Assembly (NCBI GenBank): GCA_038150265.1
Contig: JAYOTF010000004.1
Span: forward strand, 1 to 64,000
Source: Deltaproteobacteria bacterium
Lineage (GTDB): Bacteria > SAR324 > NAC60-12
Length of the DNA stretch: 64,000 nucleotides
Direction of reading: 5' to 3'
The position numbers and the translations under genes were made by a program. Within the stretch, counting starts at the first letter, position 1. Each line of letters opens with the position of its first letter. Shown here piece by piece: positions 1 to 15,133 of the stretch. The notes under the pieces are model-generated. The model was not told the DNA's origin. It ran no database searches and saw only the letters and a program-made list of their open reading frames with translations.

Positions 1-832
1 TGCACGACGCAGCCGGTTCCACTGCACAGCTCCCGTACTCGTAGCTCCCGCTCAGTGTGCCGTTGATGCAGGTCCGGATTTCCGAGCTGCAGGTGCTGCC
101 GAAGGCCACTGTGTCCGTGAAGTAGGCGGTGACGGTATCACCGTTGGCCACGGTCTCGTCATTGAAGCGGCAGGCGTTCTGCTGCTCGGCGAGTGTTTGT
201 TCCAGGTGCCCCTTGGCCGCTGCTTCCGAAGGCACCGTGCGCGGGTTCCCTCCTTCCAGAGGCACGGCCTTCACCGCGGTCAAGACGCTCTGGTTGCGCG
301 TCTCAAACGCGGCGGGGTCAACGGCAAAATCGACCGACCCCGCTTGACTGCGCAGGGCGGTCTTCACGTCCTCCGGAACGGAGATGCCGTTGCTCGGGTC
401 GCCATCGGCATCGAGGGTCTGGAGGAAGCGGGCGATGTTGACGACGGCATCCGAGCTGGTGCTGCCTCCGGGGACGAGGTCGACTGGGGTGACGGTGGCT
501 CCGCCGGTCGCGGCCCCGACGGTGATGCCGGCCACCGAAAAGGTGACGGATTGGCTCTCTTCGTAGAAGAAGGTCCCGGCGCCGTCGGTGGTGCCGCTGG
601 TGCTTCCGGACGTGTAGTCCAGGCCCTCCACTGCCGAGTCGAGGAAGACGCCGGACTGAAGCGACACCCCGGTGGTGAAGCCTTCGGCGACGCTTTCAAT
701 GGACTTCGATTCGGTCTCGGCGTCTTCTGCGGTCATCTGCCCGCAGCTGGTGACGAGCCCCAGCAGGGTCACGCTGACGCAGAGGCTGACGGCCAGCCGG
801 GTTCGGAAACGGAGAGGAGGGAGGGGCGTCAT
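1..832 (-). CDS. Partial surface lipoprotein (runs off window start) with an FLDSAVEGLxY...RFLQTLDxDGDPSNGI domain followed by a Cys-rich repeat
   Basis: Manual translation (not in ORF track): ATG at 832, MTPLPPLRFRTRLAVSLCVSVTLLGLVTSC (lipobox-like), open to base 2; ends CRFNDETVANGDTVTAYFTDTVAFGSTCSSEIRTCINGTLSGSYEYGSCAVEPAASC; starts 10 bp after the stop of the upstream gene. Confidence 0.85.
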   Translation of the reverse strand, partial: MTPLPPLRFRTRLAVSLCVSVTLLGLVTSCGQMTAEDAETESKSIESVAEGFTTGVSLQSGVFLDSAVEGLDYTSGSTSGTTDGAGTFFYEESQSVTFSVAGITVGAATGGATVTPVDLVPGGSTSSDAVVNIARFLQTLDADGDPSNGISVPEDVKTALRSQAGSVDFAVDPAAFETRNQSVLTAVKAVPLEGGNPRTVPSEAAAKGHLEQTLAEQQNACRFNDETVANGDTVTAYFTDTVAFGSTCSSEIRTCINGTLSGSYEYGSCAVEPAASC

Positions 833-842
833 GGTTCAACTC

Positions 843-2165
843 TCAAAAGGGGTGCTGCCACTGCATCCGGAACCCGTGCGGCTGAGGCAGCCAGGCGAAA
901 CGGTCCACCGTCTCTTCGCCCTGACGGGCCTCGGCATCCGGGCTCGAGAGCAGCAGGTAGGCTTCCACGCCCAACCCCAGGTAGGTCACCAGGTCCCAGG
1001 TCTGGTAGGTCGTCTTGAGCGAGGCCATGGACGCCTGATTGCTCTCATACTGGTCCTTCAGGTCATGATCGCCGCTGCTGGCATAGCGCTGGGCGAGGTC
1101 CTGATTCTCGCTTTCGAGCGCGTTGTACTCGTCCGCGGCGCTCCGGGCCTGCAGCATGGACACGCCCGTGAGGCCGAGCGTCACGGCGTGCCAGACCCAA
1201 CGAGGGGTTCCTGAGGAGGCGGAGGGCTCTTCCCGGGTCTGCAGGGGTGGCTCCAGTTGCGGGAGAGGCTTGCGGGCCGCATCCGGTGGAGGGGCGGGAG
1301 GCGGTTGCTCAGCCACAGCGGGAGGCGGTTGAGGCGCAGCAGGGGGGTCGTCTTCCCGGATGGTGACGGTCAGCGTGGGCAGAGCGAGGAAGCCGTAGTT
1401 GAGGTCCGTCACTTCCGTGAGGACCCCGGTCAGGTTGAGGGTCCGGTCTCCGGTCCGCACGGTGTCATCTGTGGCGCGCACCCTCACGGTCTGCGGCACA
1501 CCGGCTTGCTCGGGGGGAAGGGTCAGGGTCGGCGGCGAAAGCGTCACCGCCCCGGCGTCAGAGGCTTCAAACTCCAGGGTCAGTGGCCCCGTCAGCGTCC
1601 CGGTGACCACGAGGGAAAACGAGCCTTCGGCGCCTTCCGTCAGGTCCAGCTGTTCCGGAGTCAGGCGAAAGCCTGGGGGTTCAGGCGCCGGGGGTTCGGC
1701 CTCCTCTGGGAGGTTGCCCAGCACGTTCTCGGCCACCGCCTCCACCGCCTCCAGCAGTTTGGGCAGCCCGCACCCCACGCAGTTCTCGTTCTTGACGACC
1801 CGCTGCTTGCCCTGAATGAGGCTGAGCGAAACCTGGGTGAGGGCGCTTTCCTGATCCTGCAGGAGCTGCAGGCTGAAGATGCGGTTGACGTTGAGCGTTT
1901 CCTGAACCCGGGCGAGGCAGTTTTCCTCGGTGCAGGCTTCTCCGGGCAAGCTCTGAATGGCGTCTTCAAACGCCGACTCCACCTCTGCCTGCGGGACCAG
2001 CAGAAACTGACGGGAGAGGCGTTCCTGAAGCTGATTGAAGAGCACCTGGGTCTGCACCGGAGACATTCCCAGCGAGCTCACCGGCAGCAGCGCCACCCGC
2101 TCCTTGGCCCACCCGTGGGTGAGGCACAGCACCCAAACCAGCAGCAGCAGGACCCCATGCTTCAT
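843..2165 (-). CDS. Secreted envelope protein: N-terminal alpha/beta domain (CTEENC, CxxC), Ig/Calx-beta-like segment, Pro-rich linker, C-terminal hydrophobic helices
   Basis: Start MKHGVLLLLVW (signal peptide) overlaps the caspase stop (ATGA); N-terminal ~270 aa paralogous to 3922-5715. Confidence 0.8.
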   Translation of the reverse strand: MKHGVLLLLVWVLCLTHGWAKERVALLPVSSLGMSPVQTQVLFNQLQERLSRQFLLVPQAEVESAFEDAIQSLPGEACTEENCLARVQETLNVNRIFSLQLLQDQESALTQVSLSLIQGKQRVVKNENCVGCGLPKLLEAVEAVAENVLGNLPEEAEPPAPEPPGFRLTPEQLDLTEGAEGSFSLVVTGTLTGPLTLEFEASDAGAVTLSPPTLTLPPEQAGVPQTVRVRATDDTVRTGDRTLNLTGVLTEVTDLNYGFLALPTLTVTIREDDPPAAPQPPPAVAEQPPPAPPPDAARKPLPQLEPPLQTREEPSASSGTPRWVWHAVTLGLTGVSMLQARSAADEYNALESENQDLAQRYASSGDHDLKDQYESNQASMASLKTTYQTWDLVTYLGLGVEAYLLLSSPDAEARQGEETVDRFAWLPQPHGFRMQWQHPF

Positions 2166-3502
2166 GGCATCAGCTCCGCAAAGAAGTCCGGCGCGCCCTT
2201 CTGCTCCCAAAAGCGGAGGAGCTTCTCGGCCACCTGCTCAAAGGCCACAGCGGCGGCTTCCGGAGAGTCCGGAGGCGTGCGGTAGGGCAGGCGCTCACCC
2301 AGCACCAGCGGCGCTCCTCGTGAAACCAGCTGGGCGCCCCGCAGCTCCCACACCTCCAGCTTGAGGTCGAGGAAGGACATCCCTTTCCAGATCAGGGACG
2401 CCTGTTGCTCCTGCCGGCCTTCGAGGGTCCAGACCACGGCTTGCGTCACTCCCGTCCGGAGCATCTGCCGCCGCAGGGCTTCCGCGTCTCGGACCGGCTC
2501 CGACACCACGTCTCCAAAGGGGCCCTTCAGCTCTTCGCGGATCCGGGCTTCCAGCAACGCCGAGGCGGCCCCCGGAACCAACGGGCCTGACGCCGGGGGC
2601 TTCCGGAACGCGAGGAAGATGCCGGGCTTGGCCTGAGGCCGACGGAGGAAGAAGAACTCCCCGCCCTGGTGCCCCTGATTGCTGATGGCCTGAAACACCG
2701 GCGTCTGGCGACTGCCGGTGGCCGATTGCGTGTCGTTGGAGACGTTCCGGGCGAGGCGCAGCGCCAGCTCGGAGGTGGCCAGATACGGCGCCCGGTTGGC
2801 CTCCAGCTGGCCCAGCAGGTGGTAGGCAAAGATGGAGTTGCCGTTCCAGCGGGCTCCGCCATCGGACACCGGTTCGTTTCCTCCAGAGGTCAGGCCCAGC
2901 ACGGAGCGGAGCCGGTTCTTTTCCTCAAAGTAGCGGTCGTTGAGGGGTTCGCCCGCAGGCGGGTGAACGATTCCGCGGGTGAGCAGGTTTCCGCTGAAGC
3001 AGGAGTCGGAAATGAGCAGCTTGTGCCGGGCGTCAATGGCCCGGATCTGGGTGAGGAGGTCGCTGTTGCTGAGGTGCTGGTAGCGGTTTTCGGTGCTGGC
3101 GTCCACGGGAACCCAGTAGCCATCTTCGCGCTCGTCGTACTCGCCGTGCCCAGCGTAGTAGATCAGCACATGGTCGTCGGGGCCACTGTGCTGCTTGAGC
3201 CAGTCGAAGCCCTTGAGCAGGTCCACCCGGGTGGCATCCAGCAGCAGCCGGACGTGTTCGGGCGCAAAGGTGTACTCCGTCGTCAGGACCTCCTGCAGGC
3301 GCTGGGCGTCGTGCCGAGCGGTTTGCAGCACCGGCCAGTGCTGATACGCATTGTTGCCAATGATCAGGGCGTAGTAGTCCCCGGTTCCGGAGTGTGACGT
3401 TGCCGCAAGGGGCGCCACCCCGCGCTCCTGAGCGCTGACCGAGGTCACCAGCAGGAGCAGCAGGATTCCTGTCAACGTGCGTCTGAGGCAAGAAGCCGCC
3501 AT
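2162..3502 (-). CDS. Secreted caspase-like cysteine protease (peptidase C14) with ~150-aa C-terminal domain
   Basis: YALIIGNNAY, YYAGHG (His), ISDSCFSG (Cys); signal peptide ending VSA-QERG; alternative start 3514. Confidence 0.92.
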   Translation of the reverse strand: MAASCLRRTLTGILLLLLVTSVSAQERGVAPLAATSHSGTGDYYALIIGNNAYQHWPVLQTARHDAQRLQEVLTTEYTFAPEHVRLLLDATRVDLLKGFDWLKQHSGPDDHVLIYYAGHGEYDEREDGYWVPVDASTENRYQHLSNSDLLTQIRAIDARHKLLISDSCFSGNLLTRGIVHPPAGEPLNDRYFEEKNRLRSVLGLTSGGNEPVSDGGARWNGNSIFAYHLLGQLEANRAPYLATSELALRLARNVSNDTQSATGSRQTPVFQAISNQGHQGGEFFFLRRPQAKPGIFLAFRKPPASGPLVPGAASALLEARIREELKGPFGDVVSEPVRDAEALRRQMLRTGVTQAVVWTLEGRQEQQASLIWKGMSFLDLKLEVWELRGAQLVSRGAPLVLGERLPYRTPPDSPEAAAVAFEQVAEKLLRFWEQKGAPDFFAELMP

Positions 3503-3548
3503 TGATTCTTCCATCCTGAGGTTTCGGGTGTGGGGTCTCGTTGGAGAG

Positions 3549-3589
3549 CAACCCTATCGAAGGATGACGGACAGCCTCAAGGTTTTCCA
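3549..3589 (-). promoter_or_regulatory. Conserved upstream motif copy 1 (TTGA-N15-TTCGATAG, sigma28-like)
   Basis: 36/41 identical to 7101-7141; both lie ~50 bp upstream of a caspase start. Confidence 0.6.
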
Positions 3590-3921
3590 GGGGGTCGCCG
3601 CGGGAGTTCGCAGCGGCCTTTCGGGGTTGGGACAAAATGACAGGGGGACGGACCGGATCAGGAGCTGGGGCAGGAGGTCACTTGAAGCCTCGGAGAAGGA
3701 ACCCCGCTCGCCTCCCTTCAAGTCTGAAAAATCAGGGGTTTTGTCAAAATTTCAACTGAAGCCGACCGCCCAGAAGCCCTCTGCTTCAGCACCTGTTTGC
3801 AACGGAGCCGGGCAGGGTTTCGGAAAATTTTACCCAAGCCGCAGCCGCCTTCATTTTTCTACTTGCCTGGAGCGGCTCCGAAACGCTCCGGTGCTGGTTG
3901 AAGCGATGCTGCTGCCGAGGC

Positions 3922-5715
3922 TCAGAAGCGAACCCCCAGGGCCAGGTTGGCTTCCCAGGTGGAACCGTCTCCCACCAGCCGCGGCTCCACCTGCCAGCGT
4001 TTCCCATGAAACGGAATCCCGGCCCCCACCTCGGTGACCGTCTGCACACCACGGTAGCGAGATGACGCGGTTGCAAACTCCCAGACCTGCTGGGCCACCC
4101 CCAGGGTTGCCCGCAGGAAGTGCCACCTCGGTGTCCAGTACCGCACGCCCCACCGGCTCCAGGTGACCCCGGTCACGGCTTCCGACGCGCTGGCCGTTCC
4201 CAGCCAGATCGGACGCGTCACCTGCACCTGAGCCGCCTGGCCATAAAATCCCTCCAGGCTGCCCCAGCGAGCCTGCCCCTCCAGGGTGGCATGGACCGGA
4301 TGCTCGATGGAGACATGACTGGTGGGAAACCGGTCGGGCGTGACCCGGTACGCATTGGCGCTCAGCCCCAGCACCCAACGCACCGCCGGCTCCGGGGGTG
4401 GCTGCAGGCGAGGGGGGTCTGGCCGGCGAACCGGCGCGGGTCCCACTCGGCTCACACGCAGCGTTTCCTCAGCGCCCGCCTTCAGGGTGAGCGTCTGGAC
4501 GGGGCTGGCCTCCGGCCCGTCTTCCAGCTGCAGGCGATAGGTTCCCGCCGGGGCCTCAAAGGTGGCCTCGGTTTGGCCCTGCAGAGGAAGCCGCCGGGTG
4601 CCGTTGACCACAAGGGTCCCGGCTCGGTTATCCGGATGCACCACCACCTTCAGGCGGCCCGGAAGCGGTTCCAGCCGGATGCTGCGGACGCCCATGCGGG
4701 TGTGGGTGACGTCCACGGGAACCGTTTGCGGACGGTACCCCGGAAGCCGCAGCTCCAGCTCCGTGGCGCCTGCGGGCAGCTCCAGTTTGGCTGGCGTCAA
4801 CCGCGGCGCGCCCTGTCCATCAACCAGGGGGTGGCCTTGCTCCCAGATGGCCGCTCCCGGTGGCGTACTGAGCACCTCCAGCCCGCCCACGCGGTCATCA
4901 TCTTCGAGCGTCAGCGCCACTTCGACAGGCGCCACAAATCCGTAGTCCACCTCTTGCGTCTCCGGACTTGGGGCCAGGGTCAGCTGGGCGGTCTGGCGTC
5001 CTTGCAAGCGGAGGTCATCGGGAACCTGGACGGAAACCGCCTGCCAGTCACTCCAGTTGCCCGGATCCACCACCACCGTCGTGGGGTCGATCTGCACCCG
5101 TGGATCGGGACTGCTCAGCTGCAGCGTCACCGACTGCTGCACCACCGAGGTCACGCCCACCTGCAGCAGGGTCGGGCCCTTTCCTTCCCGGAGGGTCAGC
5201 GCCTCCGGTTTCCAGCGGAGTCCGGCGGGCACCTTCCGCTGCCGCTGTTCCTGCTGATACACGAGGAGCAGCGACTCGGTTGCCGCCTCCAGCTCCTGAA
5301 GCAGCGCCTCCAGCTGACACGCCTCACAGTTACGGGTCCGGACCTGGCGGCGGTCGCCTTCCTGCAGCGTCAGGGTCACCTGCACCAGGCCCGAAGCCTC
5401 CTCGCGTAGCACCTGAAGGCTGAGTACCACTTGCACCCGGAGCGAGGCCTGAACGGCCGCAATGCAGTTTTCCTCGGTGCAGGCGGCGCCAGAAAGCGTG
5501 GTCAGGGCGTCTTCGTAGGCCTGAGCCACCTCTGCCTGAGACACCAGGGCAAACTCTCGGGAAAGCTGATCCTGCAGGCGGTTGAAGAGGAAATTGGCCT
5601 GAACGGCAGGCAGGCCCAGAAAACTCACCGGCAGCAAGGCGGCGCGTTCACGCGTCTGGGCCCACAGGGGCAGCGCGGACAGGAAGCAGGCCAGCAGGCC
5701 GATCAGGAGCTTCAT
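3922..5715 (-). CDS. Secreted PEGA-domain protein with N-terminal CTEENC/CxxC domain, Calx-beta-like segment and probable C-terminal beta-barrel
   Basis: Signal peptide; GGLEVLSTPPGA..TPAKLELPAG..ELRLPGY PEGA pattern; amphipathic strands ending WEANLALGVRF. Confidence 0.82.
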   Translation of the reverse strand: MKLLIGLLACFLSALPLWAQTRERAALLPVSFLGLPAVQANFLFNRLQDQLSREFALVSQAEVAQAYEDALTTLSGAACTEENCIAAVQASLRVQVVLSLQVLREEASGLVQVTLTLQEGDRRQVRTRNCEACQLEALLQELEAATESLLLVYQQEQRQRKVPAGLRWKPEALTLREGKGPTLLQVGVTSVVQQSVTLQLSSPDPRVQIDPTTVVVDPGNWSDWQAVSVQVPDDLRLQGRQTAQLTLAPSPETQEVDYGFVAPVEVALTLEDDDRVGGLEVLSTPPGAAIWEQGHPLVDGQGAPRLTPAKLELPAGATELELRLPGYRPQTVPVDVTHTRMGVRSIRLEPLPGRLKVVVHPDNRAGTLVVNGTRRLPLQGQTEATFEAPAGTYRLQLEDGPEASPVQTLTLKAGAEETLRVSRVGPAPVRRPDPPRLQPPPEPAVRWVLGLSANAYRVTPDRFPTSHVSIEHPVHATLEGQARWGSLEGFYGQAAQVQVTRPIWLGTASASEAVTGVTWSRWGVRYWTPRWHFLRATLGVAQQVWEFATASSRYRGVQTVTEVGAGIPFHGKRWQVEPRLVGDGSTWEANLALGVRF

Positions 5716-7050
5716 CTAGTCCAGCACCTGTCGAACAAATGCGGCCAGGCCATTTTCCGGAGCATGTTCCAGAATCTTGGCTGCGACCCGCTGGTACTGT
5801 GCCTCCCAGCCCGCACGATCCTTTGGAGGCGTCTGATAGGGCAGGCGCTCTCCCGTCAGCTCAAACTGGTCGATCGGCTCCAGGCGCCCGTTCTGCAGCG
5901 TGTACACGGTGAGCTGCACCTCCAATCGGGCCAGCCCCTGCCAGAGCAAGGAGGCGGTTTCTTCCTTCCAGCCCTTGAGCTGCCACACCAGCGCCTGCTG
6001 CAGACCGTCTCGGAGCATCTGCCGCCTCAGGGTTTCCAGCGAGTCGAGGGTCGTTGTCACCGCAGGCTCCTGGTGCCCTGCCAGCCAGAACTCCAGGGTC
6101 TCTCGGGCGGCCCCCTGAACGGGCGCAAACTCGGGGGTCCCGGAAGGCAGGTACGCCATCAGGGTCCGGGAGGCCTCTTCCGGTTTGCGGATGAAGAAAA
6201 ATTCCCCGCCCTGGTGGCCCTGATTGCTGATGGCCTGAAAGACCGGAGTCTGCTGGCTTCCGGTTGCAGAAAGGGTGTCGTTTGCCACATGCCGGGTCAG
6301 GCTCAGGGCGAGCTCGGATGCTGAAAGGTAGGGCGCCTGATTGGCCTGAAGCTGCGCCAGCAGGTGGTAGGCAAAGATGCTGTTGCCGCCCCAGCGGGCG
6401 CCTCCGTCGGAGACGGGCTCATTGCCCCCGGAGGTGAGCCCCATGACGGCGTTGAGGCGGCTCTTCTGCTGAAAGTAACGCTCATCGCTCCAGCCGGCCT
6501 CCGGGGCCCGCACCGCGCCTCGGGTGAGGAGGTTGCCGCTGAAGCAGGAGTCGGAGATGAGCAGCTTGTGCCGGGCTTCAATGGCACGGAGCTGGTTGAG
6601 GACATCGCTGTTGCTGAGGTGCGAGTACCGGTTTTCCGTGCTCGCCTCCACCGGCACCCAGTACCCGTCTTCCCGCTCGTCGTACTCGCCATGCCCAGCG
6701 TAGTAGATCAGCACCCGGTCCTGCGCCGTGCTGCGTTCCTTGAGCCAGTCGAACCCCCGGAGCAGGTCCACGCGGGTGGCATTCTTGAGCAGCCGGACGT
6801 GGTCCTCCGGAAAGGTGTAGCGCCGCACCAGCACGTCCCGGAGCTGTTCGGCATCCCGGACGGCTGTCTGCAGCGGACGCCAGTGCTGGTAAGCGTTGTT
6901 GCCAATGATCAGGGCGTAGGAGTCGCCTTCCACTCCGGTGGAGGACGTGTGAAGCGGGGCCACTCCACGGTTCTGGGCCTCAGCCCCGGAAGCGAGAAGG
7001 AGCAGCACCAGGCCCAGCAACAGGGGCCGTGCCAGTGAAAAAACAGCCAT
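5716..7050 (-). CDS. Secreted caspase-like cysteine protease (peptidase C14), paralog of 2162-3502
   Basis: YYAGHG and ISDSCFSG; signal peptide ending AEA-QNRG; catalytic domain very similar to paralog. Confidence 0.92.
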   Translation of the reverse strand: MAVFSLARPLLLGLVLLLLASGAEAQNRGVAPLHTSSTGVEGDSYALIIGNNAYQHWRPLQTAVRDAEQLRDVLVRRYTFPEDHVRLLKNATRVDLLRGFDWLKERSTAQDRVLIYYAGHGEYDEREDGYWVPVEASTENRYSHLSNSDVLNQLRAIEARHKLLISDSCFSGNLLTRGAVRAPEAGWSDERYFQQKSRLNAVMGLTSGGNEPVSDGGARWGGNSIFAYHLLAQLQANQAPYLSASELALSLTRHVANDTLSATGSQQTPVFQAISNQGHQGGEFFFIRKPEEASRTLMAYLPSGTPEFAPVQGAARETLEFWLAGHQEPAVTTTLDSLETLRRQMLRDGLQQALVWQLKGWKEETASLLWQGLARLEVQLTVYTLQNGRLEPIDQFELTGERLPYQTPPKDRAGWEAQYQRVAAKILEHAPENGLAAFVRQVLD

Positions 7051-7100
7051 GAGCGTGTCTGCCGTCTGAAAGGTGTTGACGAAAGTGTGTTCTCAGAAAC

Positions 7101-7141
7101 CAACCCTATCGAAAGGAGACGGACAGCCTCAAGATTTTCAA
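7101..7141 (-). promoter_or_regulatory. Conserved upstream motif copy 2 (TTGA-N15-TTCGATAG, sigma28-like)
   Basis: 36/41 identical to 3549-3589 while the flanks have diverged. Confidence 0.6.
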
Positions 7142-7349
7142 CGGTCCTCCCTGGTCCCTCGACTCCCTTCTGATACGAATGACCGGCAGCAGAGGCCGGG
7201 CCATCGCCTGAAGGGAAGGCCACCGGTTCAAGGGCTGGATCCCGGCCTGCGCTGGGGGGACCACCAAGCGGCCGCCCGCACCCACCGCCACGCCAAGTTC
7301 TGCCAGCCATTTGTTTCAGGCGATTGTCCTGGCAGCTGAGGCCCCTGGC

Positions 7350-7378
7350 TTGCCTCCACAGGTGGGAAGGATTAGACT
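7350..7378 (+). promoter_or_regulatory. Putative sigma70 promoter for the BatA-like gene
   Basis: TTGCCT-N17-TAGACT. Confidence 0.5.
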
Positions 7379-7445
7379 TTTGAAGCGTTTCCGAGTTGCT
7401 TCCTGAACCCAAGCCGGCTCCCTAACCTCTCCCGCGTGGCCTCCA

Positions 7446-9172
7446 TTGATTCAATTCCTCTACCCGCTCTGGTTTTTGGCGCTTCCGCTGATGGCTCTGC
7501 CGTGGCTCTGGCCCATGGTTCAGCACCGCTTCCAGTCTCCGCTGCGCTTTGGCGCCTACTTCCTGCTGCCTCCGGAGAGCCTGCGGCGTCAGCTGCGCCC
7601 CTCCATTGATGACTGGCTCCTCAAGCTGCTGCGGAGCCTGCTGATCCTGTTGCTGATCCTCCTGCTGGCTCATCCGTTCTGGCGCGAGCAGCGGCAGGTT
7701 CAGGACGTCTGGGTGCTGGATGACACCGCCAGCCTGCCGGAAGGGGTCAGCCTGCCCCTGCAGGCCAGCACCTCCGGACAGGCGATCCGTCTTTCAGACC
7801 TGCTGGCAGCAGAGGCCCCCACCCCAGCAGAATCCCTCCCCGGGACGCCCTCGGGGCATCCGGGATCGCCTTCGCTTTCAGAGATTGCCGAAGCCGTGCT
7901 GCAGCCAACCGAAGGCGAGCAGGCGGTTGAGTTTCGGATTTTCAGAAGAGCCAGTACCAGTATTATCCTTCGGCCATCCAGCCCGTTCGCTGGGACCTGC
8001 AGCGTCCGCAGGCCCCACAACGCCGCAACGCCGCCTTGCAGGAGCTGCGTCTGGAAACCCGAGGCTTCCAGCAGTCGATCCTCCACCTCCGTCTCGCTGG
8101 AAACCCAACCGGTCCCGGAAGCCTGGTGTTGCGACAAAACGGCGACGAGTTGGCCCGTCAGGAGTTTTCAGACCTGGCGCAGGTGACCTCGGTGGCCGTG
8201 CCCCTCGGGGAAGCCTTCCAGCGGAACCAGCCCCTGGAAGCGGAGCTGGACATGCCCGGCGACGCCCTGCCCGGCGACAACACCCGGGTCTTTCTGAGGA
8301 ACCGGCAGCAGACGCCCTGGATCGGCGTGGTCAACTTTGAAGGGGAGGCGGGGATGTTCCGGTACGGCCTGCACGCCCTGCGCTCGGCCCTGAATGCCGA
8401 TGAGCGGTACTCGTACCTGCTCGGAGAGGCGGAGGAGCCGCGGGCGGAGGAAGTCGATGTGCTGCTGCTGCTCGGCGATCACCCCATCCGGACCACCGCC
8501 TTCTCGGGCTTTCCGCTGCGGCTGTTTGTTCCCACGCGGCTGGGAGACTGGCAAACCTGGGCCCAGCGCCCTGCCGATGCTCCCGATGCGGCCAACGCCG
8601 AAGCGCCTCGGACGCTGCCTGCCGAACAGTGGCAAGTGGACTGGACCCAGACCCCACTTGCTCAGGAATGGGGCATCACCCGTCAGGAGAACGGCCTGTT
8701 TTATGCGGAAGCGCAGGACCTCTGGCTCGCGCCTACCGGATTGGGCGAAGAGTGGGGGCCGTTTTATCAGGAGCAGCGCTTTCCTGATGAGATCAAGCGC
8801 TGGCTGGATCAGCTGCTGATGCGGCATCCCGTCACCCTCGCGGGGACCTTTGAGTCGGGCTCTCCGCAACTCCGGGCGCTGCTCAACCAGTCTCCGTACC
8901 TTCAGCCCGGCAGCTACGAGGTCCCTGACGCTTCCGGAGCCCAGACCCTGAAGTTTGCGGTGAACGTTCCGGTCCGGGAGAGCGACCTGACGCTGATGAG
9001 CGACGCGGCCTTTGCCGCCATGCAGGACTACCTGGAGCAAGCCGGCCAGCAGCTCAGCGCCGAGAGTCGGTCGGTCTCGAACGACCTGCGGGAGCTCCTG
9101 CTGTGGACCCTGCTCCTGCTGGCGGGGCTTGAGCTGGCCTGGGCCTTCTGGCGCCTCAAGCACCCGGTTTGA
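7446..9172 (+). pseudogene. BatA-domain/VWA-like membrane protein split by a frameshift near 7930 (or sequence error)
   Basis: N-terminus MIQFLYPLWFLALPLMALPWLW..LLKLLRSLLILLLILLLAHP (BatA) and VWVLDDTAS; the VSDFQ motif continues in another frame from 7931 into ORF 8036-9172, ending in TM segment LLLLAGLELAW. Confidence 0.75.
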
Positions 9173-9254
9173 GCGGCAGCGCCTTCGGGTCCCACTCGGT
9201 GGAGGGTCAATCAGGACGGGAGCCCCAGGGAAGAGGGGCCCGAAAGAAAGGCCG

Positions 9255-10316
9255 TTACCAGCGTCCGGTTTGAATGACGCGGCGGGCCTGGGTGATGAGG
9301 GCGACGACCATGCCGTTGAGGTCGGCAAAGCGGGGGTCACTGGTTTGGCCGAGGTGGAAGCGGTAGTAGATCTGCTGCATCACCACTGCCAGCCGGAACA
9401 CGCCAAAGACGTAGGCAAACATCAGGTCCTGGTCCGGAAGCGGGTTGGCCTGAAGGTACTGTTCCGCCATTTCCTGCCGAGAGAGGAACCCGGGCTCAAC
9501 GCTGGGAAGCATCCGGTACTGCTGCAGGTCTTCGGCATCCGAGGCCTCCACCCAGTATCCCAATGAACACCCCAGATCAAGAAGCGGGTCGCCGAGTGTC
9601 GTCATCTCCCAATCCAGCACGCCAATGATGTTCAGCGGCTGCTGAGGGTCCAGCACCACGTTATCGAGCTTGAAGTCGTTGTGAATGAGCGCCGACCGTG
9701 TCTCCTGCGGCAGGTGCTCCCGGAGCCAGGCAATGATGTCTGCCGCCTCAGGGACATCCGGAGTCGGCGCCCCGCCAAGACGCTTCGTCCAGCCTTCCAC
9801 CTGACGCTGCACGTATCCCTCCGGACGCCCCAGGTCACCGAGTCCTGCGGCGGCATAATCGAGCTGATGCAGCTCTGCCTGCACCTGCTGATGCTGCCGG
9901 CACAGCTCCGGACGCTGCTCGGGCGGAATCGGAAAATCCGCGGCAAGGTCCCGACGGACGATGATGCCCTGAATCCGCTCCATCACATAAAACGGAGCCC
10001 CCAGCACCGACTCATCCGCCTCATGATACAGGGGCTTCGGAGCCCGGGGAAAGTGCGGGTGCAGGGCCGACAGCACCCGGAACTCCCGCCCCATGTCGTG
10101 GGCACTCTTGGCCTTTGTGCCAAACGGCGGGCGCCGCAGCACCAACTCGCGCTCCCCCATCCGGAGGAGGTAGGTCAGGTTGGAGTATCCGGATGGAAAC
10201 TGAAGCAGTTCCAGTTCTCCTCCGAGGCCCAGCTGTTCCTGAAGCAAACGCTCCAGCACCTGGCGTTCCAGTTCTTCTCCGGGGCGCACCCCGCGGGCTT
10301 GGTCCTGTAGGGCCAT
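9255..10316 (-). CDS. APH-family phosphotransferase (ACAD10/11 N-terminal-like)
   Basis: GYSNLTY, LVLRRPP, AHDMGRE, HNDFKLDN, VLDWE. Confidence 0.9.
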   Translation of the reverse strand: MALQDQARGVRPGEELERQVLERLLQEQLGLGGELELLQFPSGYSNLTYLLRMGERELVLRRPPFGTKAKSAHDMGREFRVLSALHPHFPRAPKPLYHEADESVLGAPFYVMERIQGIIVRRDLAADFPIPPEQRPELCRQHQQVQAELHQLDYAAAGLGDLGRPEGYVQRQVEGWTKRLGGAPTPDVPEAADIIAWLREHLPQETRSALIHNDFKLDNVVLDPQQPLNIIGVLDWEMTTLGDPLLDLGCSLGYWVEASDAEDLQQYRMLPSVEPGFLSRQEMAEQYLQANPLPDQDLMFAYVFGVFRLAVVMQQIYYRFHLGQTSDPRFADLNGMVVALITQARRVIQTGRW

Positions 10317-10319
10317 GAT

Positions 10320-10736
10320 TCAACGTACCAGCAGTGTTTCCAAATCGGCCAGGGAGGCCTGTTCATCATCCAAATCATCGACGGGCGGACGCTCGCGAGC
10401 GTGCTTGCGCGCCGGTTCGCGGGTCACTTTCCGCTCCACCGGGACCTCGGGCGTGGGCTCCAGAATCGGGGCTTCCGCTGTGGCCTCCTCCGGCTCAGGC
10501 GCCTTTGCCTGAGTCAGAGGCTCCTCCACCAGGTCCGCCACCTGACGGAGTTTGTACGAGTACTGACGCCGCACATCCAGCAGGCGTCCGCCGGGGACAA
10601 AGTCCGGACTCGACTGAAATGCCTCGAAGTCCTCAATCACCATGGCGTGATCCAACGCCTCCGGCTTGAGGTAAATCAGCAACCCGGGCTCTTCTCCACG
10701 AAGCCCCTTCCCTTCGAACTTCAACCAATTGATCAT
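10320..10736 (-). CDS. Hypothetical protein, acidic low-complexity C-terminus
   Basis: 138-aa ORF with AGGAAGGA RBS; ends 3 bp before the phosphotransferase start. Confidence 0.7.
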   Translation of the reverse strand: MINWLKFEGKGLRGEEPGLLIYLKPEALDHAMVIEDFEAFQSSPDFVPGGRLLDVRRQYSYKLRQVADLVEEPLTQAKAPEPEEATAEAPILEPTPEVPVERKVTREPARKHARERPPVDDLDDEQASLADLETLLVR

Positions 10737-10779
10737 CGTTTATCCTTCCTGAAAACAAATGGACGGTCCTGGGAAAAGT

Positions 10780-10795
10780 AGCGAGAAGCATGCCA
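10780..10795 (-). promoter_or_regulatory. Putative sigma54 (-24/-12) promoter
   Basis: TGGCATGcttcTCGCT, GG-N10-GC spacing, ~45 bp upstream of 10736. Confidence 0.55.
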
Positions 10796-10843
10796 CCTCC
10801 GGACCCCGGACACGGCCCTTCTTGCCGGAGCCAAGAAAACTTC

Positions 10844-10902
10844 TTGACATCCGTGGTGGGGTGTCCGATTCTGCTTGCCCGAAACGACTAAATCCTTTTA
10901 GT
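10844..10902 (+). promoter_or_regulatory. sigma70 promoter plus LacI-type operator
   Basis: TTGACA-N17-GATTCT; palindrome ACTAAA-TCCT-TTTAGT at 10887-10902 next to the AGGAG RBS. Confidence 0.6.
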
Positions 10903-10918
10903 TTAGGAGTTTTCCCGA

Positions 10919-11911
10919 ATGACCCTTTCCCTCAAGGAAATTGCCGAAATTGCAGGCGTTTCCAAAACCACGGTCAGCATGGTGGTCAATGGCCGTGGGG
11001 AGCACTACCGAATCAGCGCCGAGACCCGCGAGCACGTGATGCGCCTGGTGGAGGAGTATGGCTACTCGCCCAACGCTCAGGCCCGGAGCCTGCGGCTGCG
11101 CAAGACCCAAACCCTGGGAGTGGTGGTCCCGGGACTCGTCAATCGCTTCTTTGCCGAGTTTGCCGAGCGCTTTGACGGGGCCGCTCGGGCGCAGGGGTAT
11201 CAGGTGTTCCTGACAGCGACCAACGATGACCTGCCGACCGAGATTGAGGTGGTCAAGAACCTGCTGTCCCGCAACATTGACGGGCTCGTCGTTGCCAGTG
11301 CAGACTCTGCGGGACGCTGGACGCCTTCCAACAAGTACCTCGCCATCCCTCGTGTGTACATCGACCGCCTGGTCGCCCGTCCGGAAGCCTCGTGGGTGGT
11401 GAGTGACGACTACGACGGCGCCTACCGGCTGGTGGACGAGCTGTGCCGACGCGGCGCCCGGGAGGTTTATTACATCGGGGGCGGCCCCCGGATTTCCACC
11501 AGCATGGACCGACGGCGCGGGGTGCAGGATGCGCTGCAGACGCACCGCCTGGAGCAACGTCCGGAGCAGATCCTCGAACGCGGGTACGACTTCCGGGACG
11601 GATACGCCATGGCCCAGCAGCTTCATGACCAGCACCCCACCCCTCCGGAGGCCCTGTTTACGGGTTCCATGACCCTCTTCGAGGGGGTGCTTCAGTACCT
11701 GCAGGAGCAGGCGCCGCTCTGGCTGGAGCACACCCGCTTTGCCACATTCGGGAAACAGCCCATGCTGGACTACCTTCCCGGCTCCATCATCTCAGCGCAC
11801 CAGGACGTGGAGAAAATGGTGGAAGCCACCCTGGAGCTGCTGCTCCGACAAATTTCAGGTGATACCGAAATTCAGCAGATCAAGATTCCGCTGAAATTTG
11901 TCTTTCGTTGA
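10919..11911 (+). CDS. LacI-family regulator (FruR/ScrR-like)
   Basis: LKEIAEIAGVSKTTVSMVVNG HTH, YSPNAQARSLR hinge, sugar-binding domain. Confidence 0.93.
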   Translation: MTLSLKEIAEIAGVSKTTVSMVVNGRGEHYRISAETREHVMRLVEEYGYSPNAQARSLRLRKTQTLGVVVPGLVNRFFAEFAERFDGAARAQGYQVFLTATNDDLPTEIEVVKNLLSRNIDGLVVASADSAGRWTPSNKYLAIPRVYIDRLVARPEASWVVSDDYDGAYRLVDELCRRGAREVYYIGGGPRISTSMDRRRGVQDALQTHRLEQRPEQILERGYDFRDGYAMAQQLHDQHPTPPEALFTGSMTLFEGVLQYLQEQAPLWLEHTRFATFGKQPMLDYLPGSIISAHQDVEKMVEATLELLLRQISGDTEIQQIKIPLKFVFR

Positions 11912-11914
11912 TTC

Positions 11915-12418
11915 ATGTCCATTCGCCCCCTCACTGAAGCCGACCTCCCGGAGGTGCAGGCCATTTACGCCCACCATGTTCAGCACGGCACCGGAACCTG
12001 GGAATGGGATCCGCCCGATCTGGCCGAAATGCAGCGCCGTGCGGTCCTCATCCAGGAGGCTCGGCTGCCGTACCTCATTGCCGAAATCCAGGGCGCTGTC
12101 GCCGGGTATGCCTACGCGGGTCCGTTTCGTCCTCGCCGGGGGTACTGCTACACGCTGGAAGATTCCGTCTACGTCCACCCCGACTTTGTGAAACAGGGAA
12201 TCGGGCACCAGTTGCTGCACGCGCTGATTGAGCAGTGCCGAGCGCTGGGGTACCGGCAGCTGGTTGCTGTCATTGGAGACTCCGCCAATGCCCCTTCGAT
12301 TGCGCTGCACCGCAAGCACGGCTTTGAAGCCTGTGGGCTCTTGCCCGGAGTCGGCTTCAAGTTTGGGCGCTTTCTGGATTCCGTCTACATGCAACTCAGC
12401 CTGCAGACGGAGGAGTAA
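11915..12418 (+). CDS. GNAT N-acetyltransferase (phosphinothricin/methionine sulfoximine acetyltransferase family)
   Basis: GYAYAGPFRPRRGY, EDSVYVHP..QGIG, NAPSIALH..GF, VGFKFGRFLD. Confidence 0.9.
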   Translation: MSIRPLTEADLPEVQAIYAHHVQHGTGTWEWDPPDLAEMQRRAVLIQEARLPYLIAEIQGAVAGYAYAGPFRPRRGYCYTLEDSVYVHPDFVKQGIGHQLLHALIEQCRALGYRQLVAVIGDSANAPSIALHRKHGFEACGLLPGVGFKFGRFLDSVYMQLSLQTEE

Positions 12419-12419
12419 G

Positions 12420-13004
12420 TTGAACCCCTCACCGACAGGCGCGCTGTTTTCTGCATGGTGGCGCTTGGGCCTCCTCCAGGCACAGGCCCGCTGGCGTCCG
12501 GCCCAGCTGTTCAATTTGGGAGAGCTGGAGGCGACGTTGCGGAGCGGCGACCCCGTCGTGCTGCTGGTTCCTCCGGAGCAGCTGCTCTACGCGTGGCATC
12601 AGCTTCGGCTCGTGGCCCAGGCAGAATTTCTGGTGTCGTGTCCGGAGTGGGAGCAGGTGAAGGACGCATGGCCGTCCACCCCCCGGCGGGTGTGGCTTCC
12701 GGAAGGAGCAGCGGCTCCGGTTCCAGAGCGTCAGACGGTGACCTGGTTTCCCTGGAGCCCAGACCGTTCCGGCCCTCCACTTCCGCTGGAAGCCTGGAGC
12801 GCGTCCGGTGCCTGGCTCTACCCGCTCTGGGCCCGCGTTCGGGGCCTGACCGAGTCAGGGCAGTCTTGGCCGGGTTGGGGAGAAAAGCCGTCGCTGTTTG
12901 TGGAGGAGCAGGGAATGCGGGTGGGTTCCGAAACCGTTACGGAGCTCCGGAACACCCTTGAGGAGCGTGTACGCCGCTTGCAGCAGGGAGCCGAGCGGGT
13001 TTAG
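12420..13004 (+). CDS. Hypothetical Trp-rich protein
   Basis: TTG after AGGAG immediately after the GNAT stop; fills the gap to the convergent fliW. Confidence 0.5.
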   Translation: MNPSPTGALFSAWWRLGLLQAQARWRPAQLFNLGELEATLRSGDPVVLLVPPEQLLYAWHQLRLVAQAEFLVSCPEWEQVKDAWPSTPRRVWLPEGAAAPVPERQTVTWFPWSPDRSGPPLPLEAWSASGAWLYPLWARVRGLTESGQSWPGWGEKPSLFVEEQGMRVGSETVTELRNTLEERVRRLQQGAERV

Positions 13005-13492
13005 GCAGCAGACTGCGCCTGGTTGGCCGGAGAGGCGTCTTCGGTCGTCTCTTCCGGAATCGGGAGCCGGTCGCCAAAGAGCGGGTGCCGCGTGGTGTAG
13101 CGTCCGTCTGGAATCACCAGCTGCATGCCGAGGCGTTTGGGCATGTTGAAGATCAGCGGGCCCTGCAGGTTGACCGTCGTCTCCCGGAAGTTCCGGGCGA
13201 TGGTGATGAGGACGCGCACCGTGATGTCGCTTTCCTCAGAGGCGTCGATCTTCTTCATCTGCTCTTCCGTCACCTCAAACTCGTAGTCGGAGGTCACAAA
13301 GTTCGGATCGATCATGACAAACGCCAGGCTCGGATTTTCCACGGACTGGAACCACTCGAAAGGCCCACCCGCTTCTTCCTCCAGCAGGACAAAGTGCCGC
13401 TCGGCGGAGAAACCCAACATCCCGTTCGGCATGTTGATGATCTGGCTGTCTGCAATTTCGACCTCACCAAAGCGAGTCGTTTGAATCTTCAT
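13001..13492 (-). CDS. fliW: Flagellar assembly factor FliW
   Basis: MKIQTTRFGEVE, GMLGF, PFEWFQS..LAFVMIDP, TVNLQGPL; adjacent to csrA. Confidence 0.95.
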   Translation of the reverse strand: MKIQTTRFGEVEIADSQIINMPNGMLGFSAERHFVLLEEEAGGPFEWFQSVENPSLAFVMIDPNFVTSDYEFEVTEEQMKKIDASEESDITVRVLITIARNFRETTVNLQGPLIFNMPKRLGMQLVIPDGRYTTRHPLFGDRLPIPEETTEDASPANQAQSAA

Positions 13493-13531
13493 GGCTCCTC
13501 AATGAGACATTAAGGTTGAGGGCTGAGGCAT

Positions 13532-13765
13532 TTAGTCCTTGTGACCGAACAGGCCTCGCAATCCTTTAATCGAGAGGGGGGATTTTTCGGCAGCCAGTCG
13601 GTTTTCTTCCTGGATGCGGATGTACACTTCCTCTCGGTGAATGACGTAGTTCCGAGGTGCATCGATCCCAATGCGCACCTGCTTTCCCTTGACTTCGATG
13701 ACCGTTACCTTGACGTCATCGCCAATTGTGATGCTCTCACCCGACTTCCTTGTCAGTATCAGCAT
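13532..13765 (-). CDS. csrA: Carbon storage regulator CsrA (FliW-type extended C-terminus)
   Basis: [35 protein letters not shown]. Confidence 0.97.
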
Positions 13766-13828
13766 TTTGCCTTGCTGGAACTTTCTGAGCCCGCACTGCG
13801 GTCAGAAGCTGTTGGCCATCTTGAACGG

Positions 13829-15133
13829 CTACCTCAGAAAGTCGGAGAGCGTGGGTTGAATGAGCCGGCTTCCGGAGTCAAGCGCCAGACGGTTGTTCAC
13901 TTCCGCGGTGTTGACATCAATGGAGGCTTTGGCGAGGTCCAGGTCCCGAACTTCTGACAGCCGTTTCTCTTTTTCAAACGCTTGGTCCTCTAACTTCGCT
14001 TGGGCGAGCTCGATCTCCTTCATGAGGTTCCCGATGTCCGCTTGGCGCTTGAGCACCTGATTCTGAGCTTTTTGTAGCTCATCTACACGTTTTGCAAGAG
14101 TAGGACCATCATTCTCAACCAGGGCCCGTTCCAGGGTCGAAAGGAGAGAAAAAACGTCGGTTTTCTCTTCCCCGGCCTCAAGCAGCACCTCCTCAGCCGT
14201 CACTCCAAGGGGCATGGAAATCCCATTTGCAATCAGGACCTCTTTTTTGTCCTCACCTCCCTGGTACGACACCTCCGGGTTCGGCGCATACAGGAACTCC
14301 AGCCCTTCCGGAAAGATGACTTCTCCATCGACGGTGAAGTCGTAGGCGTTGCCCAGGTCGATGTTGAAGTAGTCGGACATCATCTTCCCCAGCCGGCCTT
14401 CCTGGTCGGAGAACTTCAGCTTGACGCGGTCATCCGGTTTGCCATCCGGGTTGACCATTTCAATGACGGGACGCAGCACCTCGGGTTTGGTCCAGGTGCG
14501 GCCTTCATCATCGGAAAGCTGGTAGCGCGCCTGTCCGAACGGCCCCGTCTGGGTGATCCGGAGGCGGTAGTTGTTCGTCGAGTGCCCCTCAAAGTTGGCA
14601 CGGAACTGAGAGACGTCCAAAACGTCCCGGATGTCCTGCTGGATGATGTTCTTGGTCTCCACCTTGGCTGGCTGAATGGGGGAGTTCTTCACCAGCGGTT
14701 CCGTGAGGCTCTTCACGCCCGAAAAGAGGTAGAGCTTCCCCTCCTTGGCGTTTCCGGCGTCAAACATGCTCTCTCGGATCGCCGCCACCTCGCGGGCGGT
14801 CATCTGCCGAGACTCTTCATTGGCGTCACTGCCCGACTGCGAAAGCGCCAGGGTCCGGACCCGAGTCATCAGCTCCTGGATGTGGTTCAGCTCCAGTTCG
14901 CTGCGCTCCAGCCAGTTCCGGTGCTCCTGCAGGTTGAGGATGAGCTGCTCGTTGCTCGAGATCTTGGTCACGATGTCCTGCATCGTCGCGGCGCCAATGG
15001 GGTCGTCAGAGGGACGATTGAGGCGCTGCCCGGTGGCCATCTGCATCTGCGCTTCCTGCAGACGCGAGGACGTCTTCTGGATGTTGTTGAGGACCTGATC
15101 GCGGCGGCTGTTTTCCGTTACTCGCATCGTCAC
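13829..15133 (-). CDS. flgL: Flagellar hook-associated protein 3 FlgL
   Basis: MRVT..QMATGQRLNRPSDDP, YLFSG, C-terminal LIQPTLSDFLR; follows flgK. Confidence 0.92.
   Translation of the reverse strand: MTMRVTENSRRDQVLNNIQKTSSRLQEAQMQMATGQRLNRPSDDPIGAATMQDIVTKISSNEQLILNLQEHRNWLERSELELNHIQELMTRVRTLALSQSGSDANEESRQMTAREVAAIRESMFDAGNAKEGKLYLFSGVKSLTEPLVKNSPIQPAKVETKNIIQQDIRDVLDVSQFRANFEGHSTNNYRLRITQTGPFGQARYQLSDDEGRTWTKPEVLRPVIEMVNPDGKPDDRVKLKFSDQEGRLGKMMSDYFNIDLGNAYDFTVDGEVIFPEGLEFLYAPNPEVSYQGGEDKKEVLIANGISMPLGVTAEEVLLEAGEEKTDVFSLLSTLERALVENDGPTLAKRVDELQKAQNQVLKRQADIGNLMKEIELAQAKLEDQAFEKEKRLSEVRDLDLAKASIDVNTAEVNNRLALDSGSRLIQPTLSDFLR

Follow-up and report, generated by a model that had tools for sequence, protein, structure and literature searches.

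Metacaspases, orthocaspases and the paracaspase MALT1 are all members of the protease family C14 (clan CD), and bacterial members of this family with probable signal peptides, as well as operons holding multiple caspase genes, have been known since 2012 (PMC3501461). Here we describe a tandem of such genes from a bacterium of the SAR324 lineage (assembly GCA_038150265.1, contig JAYOTF010000004.1), located in a stretch of 64,000 nucleotides which is referred to as the window. Each of its two putatively exported C14 proteases is followed by a partner protein, and the second unit runs on into a lipoprotein gene. Our analysis confirmed that this module is real and conserved and that it constitutes a lineage-specific variant of exported caspase cassettes. 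No description of a module consisting of the protease tail domain (X), a thioredoxin, the partner head domain (Y), an anchor and a lipoprotein was found in the literature searched, most subscription journals lying outside that search. The firmest new points are the pairing of the anchor with a tether in the lipoprotein and the link of X to the thioredoxin.

The fold, the His/Cys dyad and the conserved Asp residues are shared between the window proteases and the metacaspases, orthocaspases and MALT1, from which they differ in being joined to the unnamed domain X, which is modelled as TolB-N-like, and in being linked to a thioredoxin and to partners of outer-membrane type. A caspase-fold His/Cys domain outside the cytoplasm is also found in DdvA of Myxococcus xanthus, a periplasmic anti-sigma factor composed of tetratricopeptide repeats (TPR) and a CHAT domain, which has been proposed to start signalling by regulated proteolysis (PMC11506125). 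DdvA belongs however to the CHAT family, resides in the inner membrane and has a part in the cytoplasm that binds sigma, whereas here a predicted soluble C14 enzyme goes together with outer-membrane-type anchors and lipoproteins. The window proteases contain no internal hydrophobic segment, and no sigma gene was seen by eye among their neighbours.

The succession of an outer-membrane protein gene and the gene of its cognate lipoprotein is known from Slam (type XI secretion; PMC5449769) and recurs here at 21 of 29 and, in a second set, 9 of 14 loci. The cargo of Slam is commonly an eight-stranded barrel, which is not seen in the cargo here, and the anchor found here is a helix hairpin plus a beta-hairpin; no Pfam or NCBIfam match to the Slam family (TPR plus barrel) was obtained for either partner. 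PorU from type IX secretion is likewise a caspase-fold cysteine protease of the envelope (PMC4560394), but it belongs to family C25, acts on the C-terminal signal of cargo that is not lipoprotein and is essential for its system, whereas the enzymes described here belong to C14 and are dispensable for the anchor-lipoprotein pair. No C25 match is listed for the window proteases at E values up to 1, while C14 was matched.

Ring-shaped assemblies at the outer membrane are known for PelC, CsgG and FlgT. Both X and Y share, according to their models, the fold of the TolB-N/CsgG/PelC/FlgT-M proteins, Y being distinguished by four invariant Cys. No sequence match of X or Y to these families was found in Pfam or NCBIfam, or, for Y, among solved structures; in addition, the partners have neither a CsgG match in Pfam nor a lipobox, and no curli gene was seen among the ORFs (open reading frames) of window positions 1-16,000. 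By these defining features, the window proteases are C14 family members and the system is not Slam, CsgG, PorU or DdvA. A preliminary description, made from the sequence of the window alone, had put the architecture forward as a candidate for an undescribed system.

The features of the locus are as follows, position 1 of the window being base 1 of the contig (C4 in our numbering):

7096-7144, minus strand: upstream motif, first copy of a 49-bp repeat
5716-7050, minus strand: protease 1 (putatively exported C14 copy 1), ORF of 444 amino acids (aa) with predicted signal peptide, C14 domain and C-terminal X domain
3922-5715, minus strand: partner 1, 597 aa, with predicted signal peptide, Y domain, Calx-beta-like immunoglobulin-like (Ig) domain, PEGA and a probable small beta-barrel ending in Phe
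3544-3592, minus strand: upstream motif, second copy of the 49-bp repeat
2162-3514, minus strand: protease 2 (putatively exported C14 copy 2), 450 aa, with the architecture of protease 1
843-2165, minus strand: partner 2, 440 aa, with predicted signal peptide, Y domain, Ig domain, Pro-rich linker and C-terminal anchor
1686-2105, minus strand: Y domain of partner 2, TolB-N/CsgG-like fold in the model
846-1223, minus strand: anchor region of partner 2, in model and family alignment a beta-hairpin with Phe as its last residue, preceded by a long hairpin of helices whose ends are hydrophobic
1-832, minus strand: lipoprotein whose gene is truncated at the contig end (277 aa seen), with lipobox, tether, N-terminal domain and first Cys-rich repeat
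692-745, minus strand: conserved tether of the lipoprotein, directly after the lipidated Cys and common to lipoproteins behind the same anchor type

The stop and start codons of unit 1 abut, the genes of unit 2 overlap by 4 bases, and the lipoprotein gene follows partner 2 after a gap of 10 bases. The five ORFs are thereby arranged as first described, all on the minus strand, with the protease-partner unit occurring twice and the second unit continuing into the lipoprotein gene. Identity between the two copies amounts to 76% in the C14 domain, 35% in the X tail, 52% in the Y head and 31% in the Ig domain. The alignment of the partners ends near residue 274, which bears out the earlier view that their C-termini are unrelated, and PEGA is recognised by Pfam in partner 1. 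As the sister species G002 has the five genes in the identical order, the tandem is not an assembly artefact. Signal peptides were assessed by a hydrophobicity heuristic, which found a hydrophobic core and an Ala-type cleavage site in four of the window proteins and a lipobox with Cys30 in the fifth.

To place the locus among its relatives, 88 genomes of the phylum were surveyed. X is present in 24 of these genomes and a distinct ResA/TlpA-like thioredoxin in 20, of which 19 also have X; in the exception the protease gene hits the contig end. Of 25 genes for this thioredoxin, 21 come after an X gene and 12 before a Y gene, so that the usual order is X, thioredoxin, Y. Its best match to ResA has E values of 6e-6 to 1e-5, below the NCBIfam cut-offs, and AhpC-TSA is above cut-off for one of two thioredoxins. 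The tightest neighbour of X in relatives is this thioredoxin, which is missing from the window locus, and the window holds a recent duplication of the form without thioredoxin between protease and partner. This most constant neighbour of X was out of sight for the preliminary description. The genome itself keeps the thioredoxin behind an X protein without protease on contig C7 (L124, G000:C7:72241-73607). That X protein has a Cys-rich head, and in G002 the pair runs on into genes for a Y-anchor protein and a lipoprotein.

In a hand tally, 11 of 19 proteases of the C14-X type, and 6 of 14 outside the genus, have Y as one of the two genes that come next; two genes which a contig end truncates ahead of X were not counted. 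The conserved linkage of caspase and partner that the preliminary description expected in other genomes was thus recovered. The adjacency of X and Y survives the loss of the thioredoxin, the two have been duplicated as a pair, and their gene order is kept across two families. The full run of protease, partner and lipoprotein was found in the window's own genome (G000), in G001, in G002 and, by eye, in G005. An Arg-x-Trp motif in X which seemed to track an adjacent thioredoxin fits most rows and was dropped because of exceptions.

Matches to the anchor family, defined by the tail of partner 2, occur in 37 of the 88 genomes. The gene next after the anchor gene encodes a lipobox at 21 of 29 loci (3 more were dropped as truncated), compared with 97 of 2,894 genes of the own genome by the same rule; behind Y genes the count is 21 of 50 (6 dropped). 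Among 14 anchor loci fetched later, 9 have a lipoprotein gene by this rule and 2 more by eye. There is no lipoprotein gene behind partner 1. The passenger domains of these lipoproteins are unrelated to each other and include Big_5, Calx-beta, Kelch, cadherin, Lcl_C, LamG and LRR. The G002 orthologue of the window lipoprotein is 792 aa long, with four repeats and a C-terminal M43-like zinc metalloprotease domain that lies below the family cut-offs. A zinc-protease gene on contig C69 was considered as the missing end of the window gene and rejected, as it encodes a separate lipoprotein.

The tether after the lipidated Cys is common to 11 of 16 listed lipoproteins (by eye). For a scoring matrix, 8 lipoproteins from other genomes were picked by eye, one of them from the sister species G002. 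Applied to the 98 lipoproteins of the own genome, this matrix gave 27.5 bits for the window lipoprotein and 19.8 for one on contig C67, while the best of the other 96 reached -5.9; these two are the ones behind the only two anchor genes of the genome. When 19 further lipoproteins were scored, positive values were obtained for the two G002 orthologues only, and lipoproteins that follow other anchor subtypes or barrels scored negative. In addition, direct fusions of C14 to an anchor, each with a lipoprotein gene next, occur on contig C67 and in G002, and another family has them in four genomes. Other lipoproteins, encoded behind Y proteins with Sel1 tails (L056, L073, L088), share a tether of another kind, which contains a Gly-rich helix and two additional Cys. 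Also seen were very large proteins (L110, L159, L171) that have two anchor regions in tandem, each with a lipoprotein gene behind it.

Both window proteases match Pfam Peptidase_C14 (PF00656) with E values of 3e-23 and 4e-21 (83 and 76 bits against a cut-off of 21.4). His, Cys and two Asp are invariant in all 57 aligned full-length homologues, so that the intact dyad noted before stands, the export signals being those of the heuristic. The two invariant Asp align with Asp of Yca1 and AtMC4 at metacaspase positions, acidic residues which we take to line the S1 pocket. Enzymes of the metacaspase type prefer basic residues for cleavage (PMC8283722), and because of the alignment with Yca1 and AtMC4 the invariant Asp point to a predicted cleavage after Arg or Lys.

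The protease model has a predicted local distance difference test score (pLDDT) of 87.8. In fold searches, its C14 part matches AtMC4 with Z 23.5 (root-mean-square deviation, rmsd, 2.3; 213 residues aligned) and MALT1 with Z 22.4. The X tail models as a TolB-N/FlgT/PelC-like fold, its matches to FlgT (Z 9.1, rmsd 3.7, 144 aligned), HpaA (8.9) and PelC (8.5) being slightly above common-fold values. Its best score in the ESM Atlas, 0.83, is a lead only. X occurs on either side of C14 and together with two subfamilies of it: the domain joined to X is C14 at the N-terminus, a different C14 at the C-terminus (G010, G079) or a Cys-rich non-protease head. Export signals as such are not special to this locus; they are already in print for C14 proteins, and they are common in this genome, which holds eleven C14 genes (nine besides the window pair, with varied tails) whose N-termini look signal-like by eye.

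For partner 2, the model (pLDDT 86.1) begins with the Y head and a Calx-beta/PapD-like Ig domain, continues through a disordered Pro linker and a long helical hairpin, and closes with a beta-hairpin; the Calx-beta-like segment reported earlier is backed by the fold search. Y models as a TolB-N/CsgG-like fold, with matches to TolB (Z 11.3, rmsd 2.6, 115 aligned), CsgG (6lqh, Z 10.2, rmsd 5.9, 120 aligned), FlgT (10.2) and PelC (9.7). As far as the models can be relied on, the TolB-N/CsgG/PelC-type fold of the protease tail and the partner head is new here, while detectable sequence homology between X and Y was rejected, at a probability of 0.3%. The four Cys of Y are invariant in 50 of 50 rows. 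Y matches at least 764 clusters (at 50% identity), and its best 150 matches carry many different tails, 72 of them ending in Trp, Phe or Tyr. The tail of partner 1 is probably a small beta-barrel ending in Phe, as read from the sequence pattern.

In the model of partner 2 the anchor has two beta-strands per chain, with no TPR and no closed barrel. A fold search with it returned just generic helical hairpins (Z up to 11.4), which was uninformative, and a search against the sequences of solved structures gave nothing for Y and one chance-level row for the anchor. In the ESM Atlas the anchor matches unnamed clusters at 0.92-0.94; the few members on record there belong to Gemmatimonadota and Myxococcota, which is a lead to a wider distribution. 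Two other kinds of Y protein were noticed: minimal ones whose C-terminal part consists of one hydrophobic helix, a Gly/Ser linker and a single last strand finishing on an aromatic residue, two of them with lipoproteins behind (L046, L047, L049, L060, L075), and ones with the Y head joined to a TonB C-terminal domain (L094 by family match; L095 and G000:C13:57281-58300 by likeness).

The preliminary description had proposed that the partner scaffolds the protease. In complex predictions, protease 2 with Y plus Ig of partner 2 scored 0.54 against 0.00 for the best control, the runs agreeing in at least 88% of contacts with a partner pLDDT of at least 82. The mark that this score passes is reached by 116 of 157 solved pairs and 2 of 215 mismatched pairs; with a score of 0.60 or under, however, only 18 of the 157 solved pairs but both mismatched ones reach it. 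The conserved adjacency made docking likely beforehand, so that the odds of binding are raised modestly. The modelled pair thus lends weak support to direct binding of protease and partner, against which it has to be said that no interface was returned.

Genes for a CHASE2 adenylate cyclase, DUF4384 or LPP20-like proteins adjoin X or C14-anchor genes in G005, G010, G052, G084 and on contig C67 of the own genome, many other contigs being too short to tell. The C67 operon (L172, G000:C67:1-9084) comprises LPP20-like lipoproteins, a trypsin-like protease, FlgO-DUF4384, a 135-aa protein of two helices plus a beta-hairpin, an adenylate cyclase, a C14-lectin-anchor fusion and a LamG lipoprotein, and has the same gene order in G002. 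An Arg/Lys-Gly/Ala-hydrophobic motif near the mature N-terminus is present in 52 of 56 proteases, compared with 9 of 150 Y proteins and 524 of 2,894 genes. A similar motif occurs once in partner 1, and the Arg/Lys-Gly-hydrophobic motif is absent from partner 2 and from the 277 aa of the lipoprotein that are seen. The suggestion that the protease processes the lipoprotein is accordingly without direct support, the site that the proteases themselves carry being missing from this part of it.

From the composition, folds and gene order reported above we infer location, docking, activation and substrates as follows. The locus might encode a lineage-specific platform for envelope proteolysis, rather than an export machine, in which a periplasmic Arg/Lys protease is docked under pairs of outer-membrane anchor and lipoprotein and tied to CHASE2/DUF4384 signalling; we put this forward tentatively, at slightly less than an even chance. 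The partner would sit in the outer membrane with Y and Ig facing the periplasm, and the protease would dock on this head. The lipoprotein would bind the anchor through its tether and present a domain, either binding or hydrolase, that varies. The protease may become active once clustered on the anchor, and would cut after Arg or Lys in itself and in envelope proteins. The likeliest substrates would be the DUF4384 proteins of the neighbouring CHASE2/adenylate-cyclase clusters, whose cleavage would provide a signalling input from the surface to cyclic AMP. The role of the thioredoxin might be to hold the catalytic Cys in its reduced state or to look after the disulfides in Y.

Several lines argue for this proteolysis platform, namely the invariance of dyad and Asp, the folds of X and Y, the order X, thioredoxin, Y, and the fusions of X to C14 and of C14 to the anchor. 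In addition, the adjacency of anchor and lipoprotein genes, the tether profile, the predicted complex, the CHASE2/DUF4384 neighbours and the N-terminal motif are consistent with it. There are however a number of points that weigh against it. About a dozen X proteins have a non-protease head in place of C14, for 8 of 19 proteases the next two genes include no Y, and no X match is present in 23 of 37 genomes with an anchor (the assemblies being incomplete), so that the protease is not needed for the anchor-lipoprotein pair. The genomes are kin and their counts overstate independence. The complex score is of a size at which most passes are wrong, save where binding was likely beforehand, and the membrane topology of the anchor is deduced from its hydrophobic pattern only. 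No cyclase or DUF4384 gene was seen by eye among the ORFs of window positions 1-16,000, and although a motif similar to that of the proteases occurs in 6 of 7 DUF4384 neighbours, this count is without matched control and such short motifs arise by chance.

Rather unlikely, but the best placed of the alternatives, is that two loosely coupled cassettes are present, anchor with lipoprotein and X with thioredoxin each being real pairs which were co-located by shuffling and duplication of exported-protein genes in shared islands, the protease acting alone in periplasmic turnover or nutrition. The nine other C14 genes with varied tails and signal-like N-termini would agree with this, as would the promiscuity of Y as a head for many unrelated tails, the 8 of 19 proteases without Y behind and the many Y genes without X nearby. 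It would not account for an X-Y adjacency that outlasts the thioredoxin, is duplicated as a pair and is kept in order across two families, nor for C14-anchor fusions in two lineages, and the predicted binding speaks weakly against it.

The view of the preliminary description, a system for export or display of surface lipoproteins, is also unlikely. Here the anchor oligomer would pass or hold its cognate lipoprotein in the manner of Slam, and the protease would trim, release or re-attach the cargo in the manner of PorU. The frequency of anchor-lipoprotein adjacency is comparable to the 52% given for Slam (PMC5449769), the tether is specific to the anchor, Big_5, Calx-beta, Kelch, LRR, cadherin, LamG and M43 are passengers typical of surfaces, Y has a CsgG-type fold in the model, and a caspase-fold C25 enzyme processes type IX cargo (PMC4560394). 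Against this stand the dispensability of the protease, the lack of a lipoprotein gene behind partner 1, the missing cleavage site in partner 2 and in the lipoprotein as seen, and an anchor with two strands per chain and no modelled pore.

A receptor-adaptor-caspase platform spanning the outer membrane, with a logic akin to that of animal death-receptor complexes, appears improbable as well. Exchangeable surface lipoproteins would act as receptors, locked by their tether to a new oligomeric anchor of helix hairpin and beta-hairpin, the X/Y adaptor pair would cluster a redox-guarded periplasmic caspase, and the caspase would cut DUF4384 and thereby switch CHASE2 adenylate cyclases. Defence against phages or predators, with the lipoprotein sensing the attacker and the protease, in the way suggested for DdvA's periplasmic CHAT domain (PMC11506125), setting off damage to the envelope or a defence regulon, would suit the polymorphic passengers and the patchy distribution (X in 24 of 88 genomes), but is very improbable given that PADLOC left 5 of 7 proteins tested without a match and recognised only its generic caspase model, with nothing for partners, lipoprotein or thioredoxin, and that no gasdermin, sigma factor or effector was seen beside the locus among the ORFs of window positions 1-16,000.

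The repeat before each unit, previously given as 41 bp and counted as part of the module, does exist, in two copies of 49 bp that are 84% identical and are the only ones in the genome. As a component of the module it did not hold, the simplest reading being a promoter. Of the motif, G002 and G001 keep just the TTGA and TAG..T boxes, 16-18 bases apart, with a drifting spacer; because of this pattern the motif is probably a sigma-70-type promoter carried along by the duplication. A strict sigma-70 consensus scan of both motif regions gave 0 sites, the regions scoring below threshold. A riboswitch or structured RNA was rejected, as four Rfam matches at E 0.3-4.5 were all far under the gathering score and none lay on the motif, and a regulon site was likewise rejected, there being two genomic copies only.

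Some neighbouring features of the window may be recorded here. A dispersed repeat of about 125 bp at 7186-7345 gave 40 blastn rows genome-wide including the query, 17 of them within 400 bases of a contig end, and looks like a miniature inverted-repeat transposable element or a REP-type element. A BatA-type gene (PF07584) at 7446-9172 is apparently split over two overlapping frames (7446-8186 and 8036-9172). Positions 13001-16818 hold flagellar genes resembling fliW, the csrA region, flgL and flgK, as read by eye from their translations.

Caspase homologues with export signals have been on record from bacteria since 2012, without known partners or substrates. Concrete candidates emerge from this locus and its relatives, namely a docking partner (weakly supported), a dedicated thioredoxin and an unnamed anchor of outer-membrane type, whose lipoprotein can be predicted from an 18-residue tether. 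Two questions, the role of exported caspases and the way in which an uncultured aquatic lineage holds varied lipoproteins at its envelope, are thereby made testable with small soluble domains.

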